Under the pieces are notes generated by a model. The model was not told where the DNA came from, did not search any database, and was given only the letters and a program-made list of their open reading frames with translations. 19,443 nucleotides of DNA from the NCBI GenBank assembly GCA_005222975.1, contig NJBI01000057.1, positions 1 through 19,443 on the forward strand. Reading direction: 5' to 3'. Position 1 is the first letter of the stretch, and every line of letters starts with the position of its first letter. Source of the DNA: Promethearchaeota archaeon Loki_b31. GTDB lineage: Archaea > Asgardarchaeota > Lokiarchaeia > Sigyniarchaeales > SOKP01. Position numbers and translations under genes: made by a program. Positions 15,764 through 15,808 of the stretch are shown one piece after another.

Positions 15764-15808
15764 TCTATGAGATCGGTAATAAAACGCTAGTTATCGATTG
15801 AGACGAGA
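15764..15808 (+). promoter_or_regulatory. Eukaryote-like (Loki-type) SECIS element in the 3'UTR
   Basis: ATGA (15767-70), then arm GATCGGTAAT (15771-80), loop AAAACGCTA (15781-89), arm GTTATCGATT (15790-99) and GA (15800-01). All 10 positions pair (7 Watson-Crick, 3 G-U), with a tandem GA/AG core and unpaired apical adenosines. Confidence 0.88.

Follow-up and report, generated by a model that had tools for sequence, protein, structure and literature searches.

A probable type I Lokiarchaeota-type SECIS element behind a GDCCVxC-family gene with four in-frame UGA codons

The 3′ untranslated region (3′UTR) of a small gene of the GDCCVxC family, whose 69 codons include four in-frame UGA, very probably contains a type I Lokiarchaeota-type (eukaryote-like) SECIS element. 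This element occupies positions 15767-15801 of the window, which is the whole stretch of DNA analysed here (19,443 nt) and corresponds to an entire contig (C28) of a genome of 3.52 Mb in 99 contigs with 31.5% G+C. The genome is a metagenome bin, 92% complete and with about 6% contamination. The class of the element has already been published; it is the host gene that is a new member, and no new recoding principle is involved.

The published descriptions allow for a direct comparison. Mariotti et al. (2016, PMC4989117) described the Lokiarchaeota-type element, or lokiSECIS, as an AUGA located directly before a 9-bp stem, with a GA after the stem and an 11-nt loop in which the first five positions prefer A and the last G is ultraconserved and mostly preceded by A; such elements are known behind the PrxL, VhuU, and HdrA-VhuD genes (PMC4989117). 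The statement in an earlier note on this DNA that eukaryote-like SECIS elements have been reported for Lokiarchaeota is thereby confirmed. Huang, Xiao and Zhang (2024, PMC11227280), who surveyed more than 400 Asgard genomes for SECIS elements, gave a looser model for the eSECIS-like type I elements of Asgard archaea, with a GA_[G/A]A core, a stem of 7-15 bp with at most two mismatches, and a loop of 8-20 nt. The window element shows every feature listed for lokiSECIS, that is, the AUGA, the 9-bp stem, the 11-nt A-rich loop ending in AG (UAAAACGCUAG, with A at four of the first five nucleotides), and the GA, and the looser type I model also fits it. Its setting, in the 3′UTR of an ORF with four TGA and in a genome with a Sec pathway, is likewise that of lokiSECIS. 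As in the published cases, it lies a few tens of nucleotides past the stop codon, there is one element for several UGA, and the host belongs to the same phylum. It differs from these cases in its host gene, which is of the GDCCVxC family and has four putative Sec codons in 69, including a U-x-U motif, and in the details of its sequence: position 1 of the loop is U, which makes an extra U.G pair possible, the AUGA is preceded by UCU (not GAA), and the 3′ core reads GAG (not GAC). The coordinates of the element, its host gene, and related features are collected in Table 1.

Table 1. Features of the host gene and the SECIS element (positions refer to the window unless a locus is named).
Feature	Position	Strand	Remarks
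GDCCVxC-family ORF, 69 codons	15537-15746	+	ATG start, TAA stop at 15744-46; translation
UGA codon 25, putative Sec	15609-15611	+	Aligned to Cys of Cys-only orthologues
UGA-ACC-UGA, codons 47-49, putative U-x-U motif	15675-15683	+	Corresponds to D-C-C of GDCCVxC in Cys forms
UGA codon 59, putative Sec	15711-15713	+	Aligned to last Cys of the domain
A/U-rich closing helix, 5′ strand	15753-15765	+	Partner 15819-15831; RNAfold; support weak
AUGA, 5′ half of SECIS core	15767-15770	+	18/18 aligned orthologous elements, 12/12 elements of other genes
Upper stem, 5′ strand, GAUCGGUAA	15771-15779	+	9/9 paired to 15791-99, two of them G.U
Apical loop of 11 nt, UAAAACGCUAG	15780-15790	+	A run 15781-84, terminal A15789-G15790
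Upper stem, 3′ strand, UUAUCGAUU	15791-15799	+	Pairs with 15771-79
GA, 3′ half of SECIS core	15800-15801	+	A invariant; G to A in 3/18 orthologues
Side hairpin CGAGA/UCUCG, 6-nt loop	15804-15819	+	2 nt past the core; 5 bp, 15804-08 with 15815-19
U5 tract	15824-15828	+	Possible transcription stop together with the side hairpin (putative function)
lokiSECIS near ~170-residue genes of relatives	L033:800-842, L033:1369-1411, L023:1414-1456, L034:1729-1771 (-)		

The core is as the earlier note had described it, with the AUGA exactly 20 nt past the TAA and the GA directly after the stem. The helix between them had been presented as a fully paired 10-bp stem, in which GAUCGGUAAU (15771-80) pairs with GUUAUCGAUU (15790-99) and encloses a 9-nt loop starting with AAAA (AAAACGCUA, 15781-89). 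All ten pairs, 7 Watson-Crick and 3 G.U, can form in the window and the loop reads as stated, but the outermost loop-side pair, U15780.G15790, exists only in this genome (position 15780 is A in the two nearest relatives), and the conserved structure is a 9-bp stem with an 11-nt loop. The folding check with RNAfold gave the hairpin in its 89-nt context with -19.1 kcal/mol and z = -3.1, none of 200 shuffled sequences being as stable; when the whole mRNA is folded, the hairpin forms as a separate domain. By analogy with the eukaryotic SECIS, G15769.A15801 and A15770.G15800 may be tandem sheared pairs and give the element a kink-turn-like core. The AA found in place of the core GA in some orthologues is a published variant (PMC4989117).

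Evidence for the helix comes from an alignment (A2) of 18 distinct orthologous elements, which were chosen by a pattern needing at least 7 of 9 pairs. The AUGA, three A's of the loop, the third-from-last loop U, the terminal loop G, and the A of the 3′ core are invariant in this alignment, and the penultimate loop A is nearly so. Covariation among orthologues, one of the checks proposed in the earlier note, is found at 7 of the 9 stem pairs, which change on both sides. The covariation score of 0.567 compares with 0.01-0.18 for partners slid out of register, and 0 of 500 shuffles reach it. The 9-bp helix is paired in 92% of the cells, a proportion inflated by the selection for at least 7 of 9 pairs; the compensatory changes, however, do not arise from this selection, because the chance of the selection pattern occurring in a given 200-nt stretch is about 2e-4 (a rough estimate) and because the elements share their position, loop, and flanks. 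RNAalifold, run unguided, recovers 8 of the 9 stem pairs together with the 11-nt loop. The pair adjoining the core is non-standard in 10 of the 18 sequences, and a like mismatch occurs at that position behind VhuD genes.

The host ORF, translated through its TGA codons (25, 47, 49, and 59), matches the NCBIfam model NF041374, "GDCCVxC domain-containing (seleno)protein", with 50.4 bits against a cut-off of 40; under the standard code, the gene would stop at codon 24. The name of this family already admits selenoprotein members, to which the present case adds a 3′UTR SECIS of the Asgard type and four putative Sec positions. In an alignment to the Cys-only forms, the putative Sec residues 25, 49, and 59 stand opposite Cys and residue 47 stands one position ahead of a Cys. 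The distance from the UGA of codon 59 to the AUGA of the SECIS is 53 nt. DNA contigs from two other sequencing runs contain this region, one set being identical over 15431-15909 and the other covering 15280-16700 with two differences. Related metatranscriptome contigs from one run cover the adjacent methyltransferase gene and a short piece at ~15902-15980 but neither the host ORF nor 15767-15801, and a doubtful RNA run has a 93-nt piece within the ORF (15637-15729) as well as the genes on both sides, again without 15767-15801.

Two genes on the other strand flank the host gene: that at 14579-15328 (-) encodes a class I SAM methyltransferase of the UbiE/Methyltransf_31 type, and that at 16090-16635 (-) a membrane methyltransferase of the PEMT/ICMT type. 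This arrangement hints that the Cys/Sec-rich protein may be connected with the methylation of some substrate. Farther away, a 165-residue ORF at 16821-17318 (-), which ends in TGA, matches only positions 1-167 of the 647 positions of a pyruvate formate-lyase-like family and is probably a gene fragment, because there is no room for the remaining positions. A 272-residue ORF at 12572-13390 (-) has weak matches to gelsolin repeats and to DUF7904, a eukaryote-like signature of the kind expected in Asgard archaea.

Two covariance models were used in the search for related elements. The model R1, built from five VhuD/VhuU elements of this genome, is too narrow; the broader model R2 was derived from 12 lokiSECIS in this genome and three relatives, none of them behind a GDCCVxC gene. 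The E values of the models rest on a shortened calibration. R1 ranked 15763-15805 first in the window (15.3 bits, E = 0.29), and the best match of R2 was the same segment in the exact register (17.6 bits, E = 0.032 with the rough calibration), a score that is only suggestive when taken alone. These scores are modest because of the departures from the published form mentioned above (UCU, the U at loop position 1, and GAG) and because of a CGC in the loop; orthologous copies score 22-54 bits with R2. The next-best R2 match in the window lies more than 3 kb from the element. Since there is thus a single SECIS-like match near the ORF, one element must serve all four codons.

The rarity of the motif was assessed with a strict pattern, consisting of [AG]UGA, a stem of 9 bp in which one mismatch was allowed, an A-rich loop of 11 nt with AG at its end, and [GA]A. 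Eleven matches were found on both strands of the 3.5-Mb genome; five first-order Markov genomes of equal size contained 0, 2, 0, 1, and 1. A loose pattern gave 569 matches and was uninformative. The genes upstream of the strict matches are four VhuD/MvhD genes with two TGA each, one VhuU gene, the host ORF, and three other small TGA-containing ORFs, and the remaining two matches are probable false positives. The VhuU assignment refers to a small frame with two adjacent TGA that follows a hydrogenase large-subunit gene and is read as VhuU. In the case of one VhuD gene (C90 near 9319, +), the AUGA of the SECIS core contains a TGA that lies in the reading frame of the gene and may be its stop codon. 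A lokiSECIS that scores 43 bits with R1 (C34 near 17921 (-), L087:584-626 (-)) lies behind a membrane-anchored ORF of ~63 residues with the motif G-G-I-U-P-C. Another, with 38.7 bits (C87 near 31031 (+), L089:728-770), is found ~40 nt past a tiny zinc-ribbon-like ORF (C-x-x-C ... C-x-x-C) that ends in TGA-TAA and may carry a C-terminal Sec.

The decisive comparison is that between the Sec and Cys forms of the gene. When 400 genomes of the phylum were searched in six frames, a GDCCVxC gene was detected in 70, and 62 loci were examined. All four TGA are present at the same codons in 28 genomes (that of the window and 27 others), all of them of the window's order, and the frame is otherwise intact down to ~40% identity. 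At the 34 loci that come from other families of the phylum, the conserved domain is free of TGA and reads G-D-C-C-V-F-C-S-Y-G/A-x-x-x-C. The earlier note had expected the element behind TGA-containing orthologues and not behind Cys-only ones, and such is the distribution: R2 detects it in 23 of the 28 four-TGA loci, including the window, and inspection by eye raises this to 27 of 28, whereas R2 and a pattern scan together give 0 of 34 behind the Cys-only genes. In 22 of the 27 other four-TGA loci, the R2 match lies 38-65 nt past the last TGA, with E values of 4e-10 to 0.012 in 124 kb and one of 0.11. The only weak R2 matches at the Cys-only loci (E = 0.13 and 0.39) are ~1 kb upstream of the gene, and the pattern scan of these loci gave a single loose CUGA candidate that lacks the loop features.

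Five Sec loci are missed by R2, and four of them show variant elements by eye: L037 has a type II-like form; in L038, the stem is poly-U and the loop ends in G-G, a form shared with L043 and L045, which R2 does match; L047 has a 12-nt loop ending in G-G; and in L071, AAGA replaces AUGA. One four-TGA orthologue, L044 (genome G135), has no convincing element by eye within 160 nt. The loci L037, L038, L043, L045, L047, and L071 all belong to one family (f3) of the same order, whose variant SECIS R2 mostly misses and whose loop has the 12-nt consensus N-N-A-A-A-C-C-U-U-U-G-G, ending in GG rather than AG.

The genome encodes a Sec pathway of the archaeal/eukaryotic kind. A SepSecS gene scores 475 bits, above the cut-off, and a PSTK-like gene is present, as is an archaeal-type SelB-like factor, whose match to the bacterial model is confined to the EF-Tu-like half. 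There are two selD genes with one TGA apiece, in a G-U-x-C-K motif, which is the active-site position of selD; the TGA of the VhuD, VhuU, and selD genes of this genome stand in motifs of known Sec sites. ARAGORN, with introns allowed, called a tRNA-SeC(UCA) 1 kb from SepSecS; the drawn structure is poor in its anticodon stem and includes an "intron" of 90 nt, and this call is tentative. The matches of the Rfam tRNA-Sec model in the whole genome are below the cut-off and correspond to ordinary tRNAs, and a tRNA-Sec scan of the C59 locus was negative. According to the literature, the T arm of the Loki tRNA-Sec contains an intron. No SBP2-like protein was found in the genome (92% complete), in which the L7Ae domain occurs in only two frames, of 131 and 134 aa; Lokiarchaeota have been reported to be without SBP2 (PMC4989117).

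The comparison with the 3′UTRs of selD and VhuD of the same genome, also proposed in the earlier note, revealed the same type of RNA motif behind VhuD and the same core letters behind selD. Both selD genes are followed by (A/U)UGA, a helix of 6-7 bp, an A run, a mini-stem, and UGAG, which is the published type II form. These selD (SPS) elements resemble the window element in the (A/U)UGA...UGAG core, the A run above a short helix, and the small hairpin that comes after; they differ from it in the length of the helix (6-7 bp), the internal A bulge, the apical mini-stem, and a clear closing helix, in which AGAUGU pairs with ACAUCU.

With respect to the eukaryotic elements, the signature claimed in the earlier note stands as far as the core motifs are concerned but does not extend to the models: none of the Rfam eukaryotic SECIS families matched at E <= 10, either in the whole window or in a lax-filter search of 181 nt (15700-15880), which returned only noise. 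The term "eukaryote-type" is therefore limited here to the core motifs. Unlike eukaryotic SECIS form 1 (Rfam SECIS_1), the element shows no conserved lower helix and has a conserved 3′ side hairpin instead, and its genome has no SBP2-like protein. With respect to the methanogens, the euryarchaeal SECIS has a GAA_A asymmetric bulge flanked by a GC-rich stem of 10 bp and a short GC stem (PMC4989117). The sequence of 15747-15835 has neither this bulge nor GC-rich stems, its stems being A/U-rich, which upholds the distinction from the methanogen GAA/A type drawn in the earlier note. What the element shares with the SECIS of Methanococcales and Methanopyrus is its location in the 3′UTR of an archaeon and the same Sec biosynthesis pathway.

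The weak lower helix that the earlier note had suggested between UCU (15764-66) and AGA (15806-08) finds no support and was dropped, because these AGA bases belong to the conserved side hairpin. RNAfold proposes another closing helix, A/U-rich, between 15753-65 and 15819-31, which would give a three-way junction. In a duplex test against shuffled flanks, this helix reached z = -2.4 in the clade of the window, and the mean over 18 orthologues was z = -0.35, so that such a helix is unsupported for the GDCCVxC family. The side hairpin is a different matter: it is kept in the orthologues, where 81.5% of a 6-pair helix is paired even though three rows slip in register, and RNAalifold finds 5 bp. 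The covariation in this hairpin within the GDCCVxC family is slight because its sequence is mostly conserved. Behind the VhuD, VhuU, selD, and small-ORF elements of this genome, small hairpins of unrelated sequence occur at the same place, which argues for a structural role.

It might be thought that the hairpin, the side hairpin, and the U5 tract are nothing but a terminator or an mRNA-stability structure, the TGA being real stops or the gene a pseudogene. Hairpins are indeed common at the 3′ ends of genes, and a terminator-like hairpin with a U5 tail directly follows the element; it is the sole terminator-like call in 850 nt, and it is placed after the SECIS rather than before it. In about half of the orthologues (by eye), the side hairpin has a U run behind it, and it is therefore not just one component of a terminator. 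Moreover, a terminator needs no invariant unpaired AUGA, AAA, AG, and GA; none of the 34 Cys-only orthologues, for which terminators are needed as well, has the motif behind it; and real stops or a pseudogene are at odds with the retention of four TGA at the same codons of an intact frame across 28 genomes as far apart as ~40% identity. An explanation by termination or stability alone is very improbable.

If the codons are read through, they could still be decoded as something other than Sec, by near-cognate Trp or Cys readthrough or by a lineage-wide reassignment, with the hairpin acting as a generic readthrough stimulator. The frame would be equally open with TGA as any other residue, and relatives have Cys opposite three of the four positions. 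Against this stands the use of TGA as a stop: it closes 154 of the 1434 open frames of at least 300 codons in the genome (10.7%) and 3 of the 17 ORFs of the window, including the methyltransferase gene adjoining the host ORF, and it ends both neighbouring genes, so that TGA has not been reassigned in general. The genome also has a complete archaeal Sec pathway, the same RNA motif occurs behind the VhuD, VhuU, and selD genes with their known Sec sites, and the element is 53-155 nt from the UGA codons, unlike local readthrough stimulators. Decoding other than as Sec is accordingly held to be very unlikely. Even less can be said for a kink-turn RNA that serves a different function, for instance a C/D-box-like or L7Ae-binding regulator that lies behind the ORF by coincidence: AUGA and GA are also hallmarks of kink-turns, and two L7Ae-domain proteins are encoded in the genome, but no C/D-box or other Rfam family matches at the element, the position 38-65 nt past the last UGA is kept only in the Sec forms, and the A-rich loop and the 9/11 geometry are specific to SECIS. 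Such a coincidence is extremely improbable.

Taking the element as a SECIS, the message would probably start near the ATG and run through the element to the U tract. The RNA would fold into the tandem G.A/A.G core, the 9-bp helix, and the 11-nt loop, with the side hairpin 2 nt downstream, and the loop would present its unpaired adenines and the terminal A-G. The folded RNA may then recruit an archaeal/eukaryotic-type Sec elongation factor with Sec-tRNA(Sec), either directly or via a kink-turn binder, and ribosomes pausing at the four UGA 53-155 nt upstream would read Sec instead of stop. One element would serve several codons, as published for the HdrA-VhuD pairs. A bolder proposal, which is possible but rather doubtful, is that the kink-turn hairpin and the side hairpin at 15804-19 form a bipartite unit, a platform for an archaeal SECIS-binding factor that permits the decoding of four close UGA, including the U-x-U. 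If this were true, the product would be the most Sec-dense archaeal protein and would constitute a twelfth archaeal selenoprotein family.

Seven Asgard selenoprotein families have been listed (Huang et al. 2024, PMC11227280), and 11 archaeal families are given in a 2026 review; GDCCVxC is in neither list, and a search of the open-access literature for "GDCCVxC" found no paper. The SECIS constitutes independent evidence, at the level of the RNA, for a conserved four-selenocysteine protein of Asgard archaea. The natural contrast between Sec forms with a SECIS and Cys forms without one could serve in training Asgard SECIS models and in dating the switch from Cys to Sec. The conserved side hairpin, the apparent absence of a lower helix, and the absence of SBP2 bear on the origin of the eukaryotic SECIS.

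In three relatives (G155, G174, and G175), one or two copies of a gene of ~170 residues lie directly upstream of the GDCCVxC gene. This neighbour gene has two adjacent in-frame TGA (in G-C-U-U, A-U-G-U-U, or A-D-U-U) and its own lokiSECIS. A Pfam search with this "GCUU" neighbour protein found no family; a homologue of the gene is present in the genome of the window (C46 near 32388, L088:353-927). The SECIS of the neighbour gene in G155 is almost identical to that of the GDCCVxC gene. This observation suggests that the SECIS was copied between neighbours, and the near-identity of neighbouring elements in some relatives fits the idea that new selenoprotein genes obtain their SECIS as a copy of an existing one.
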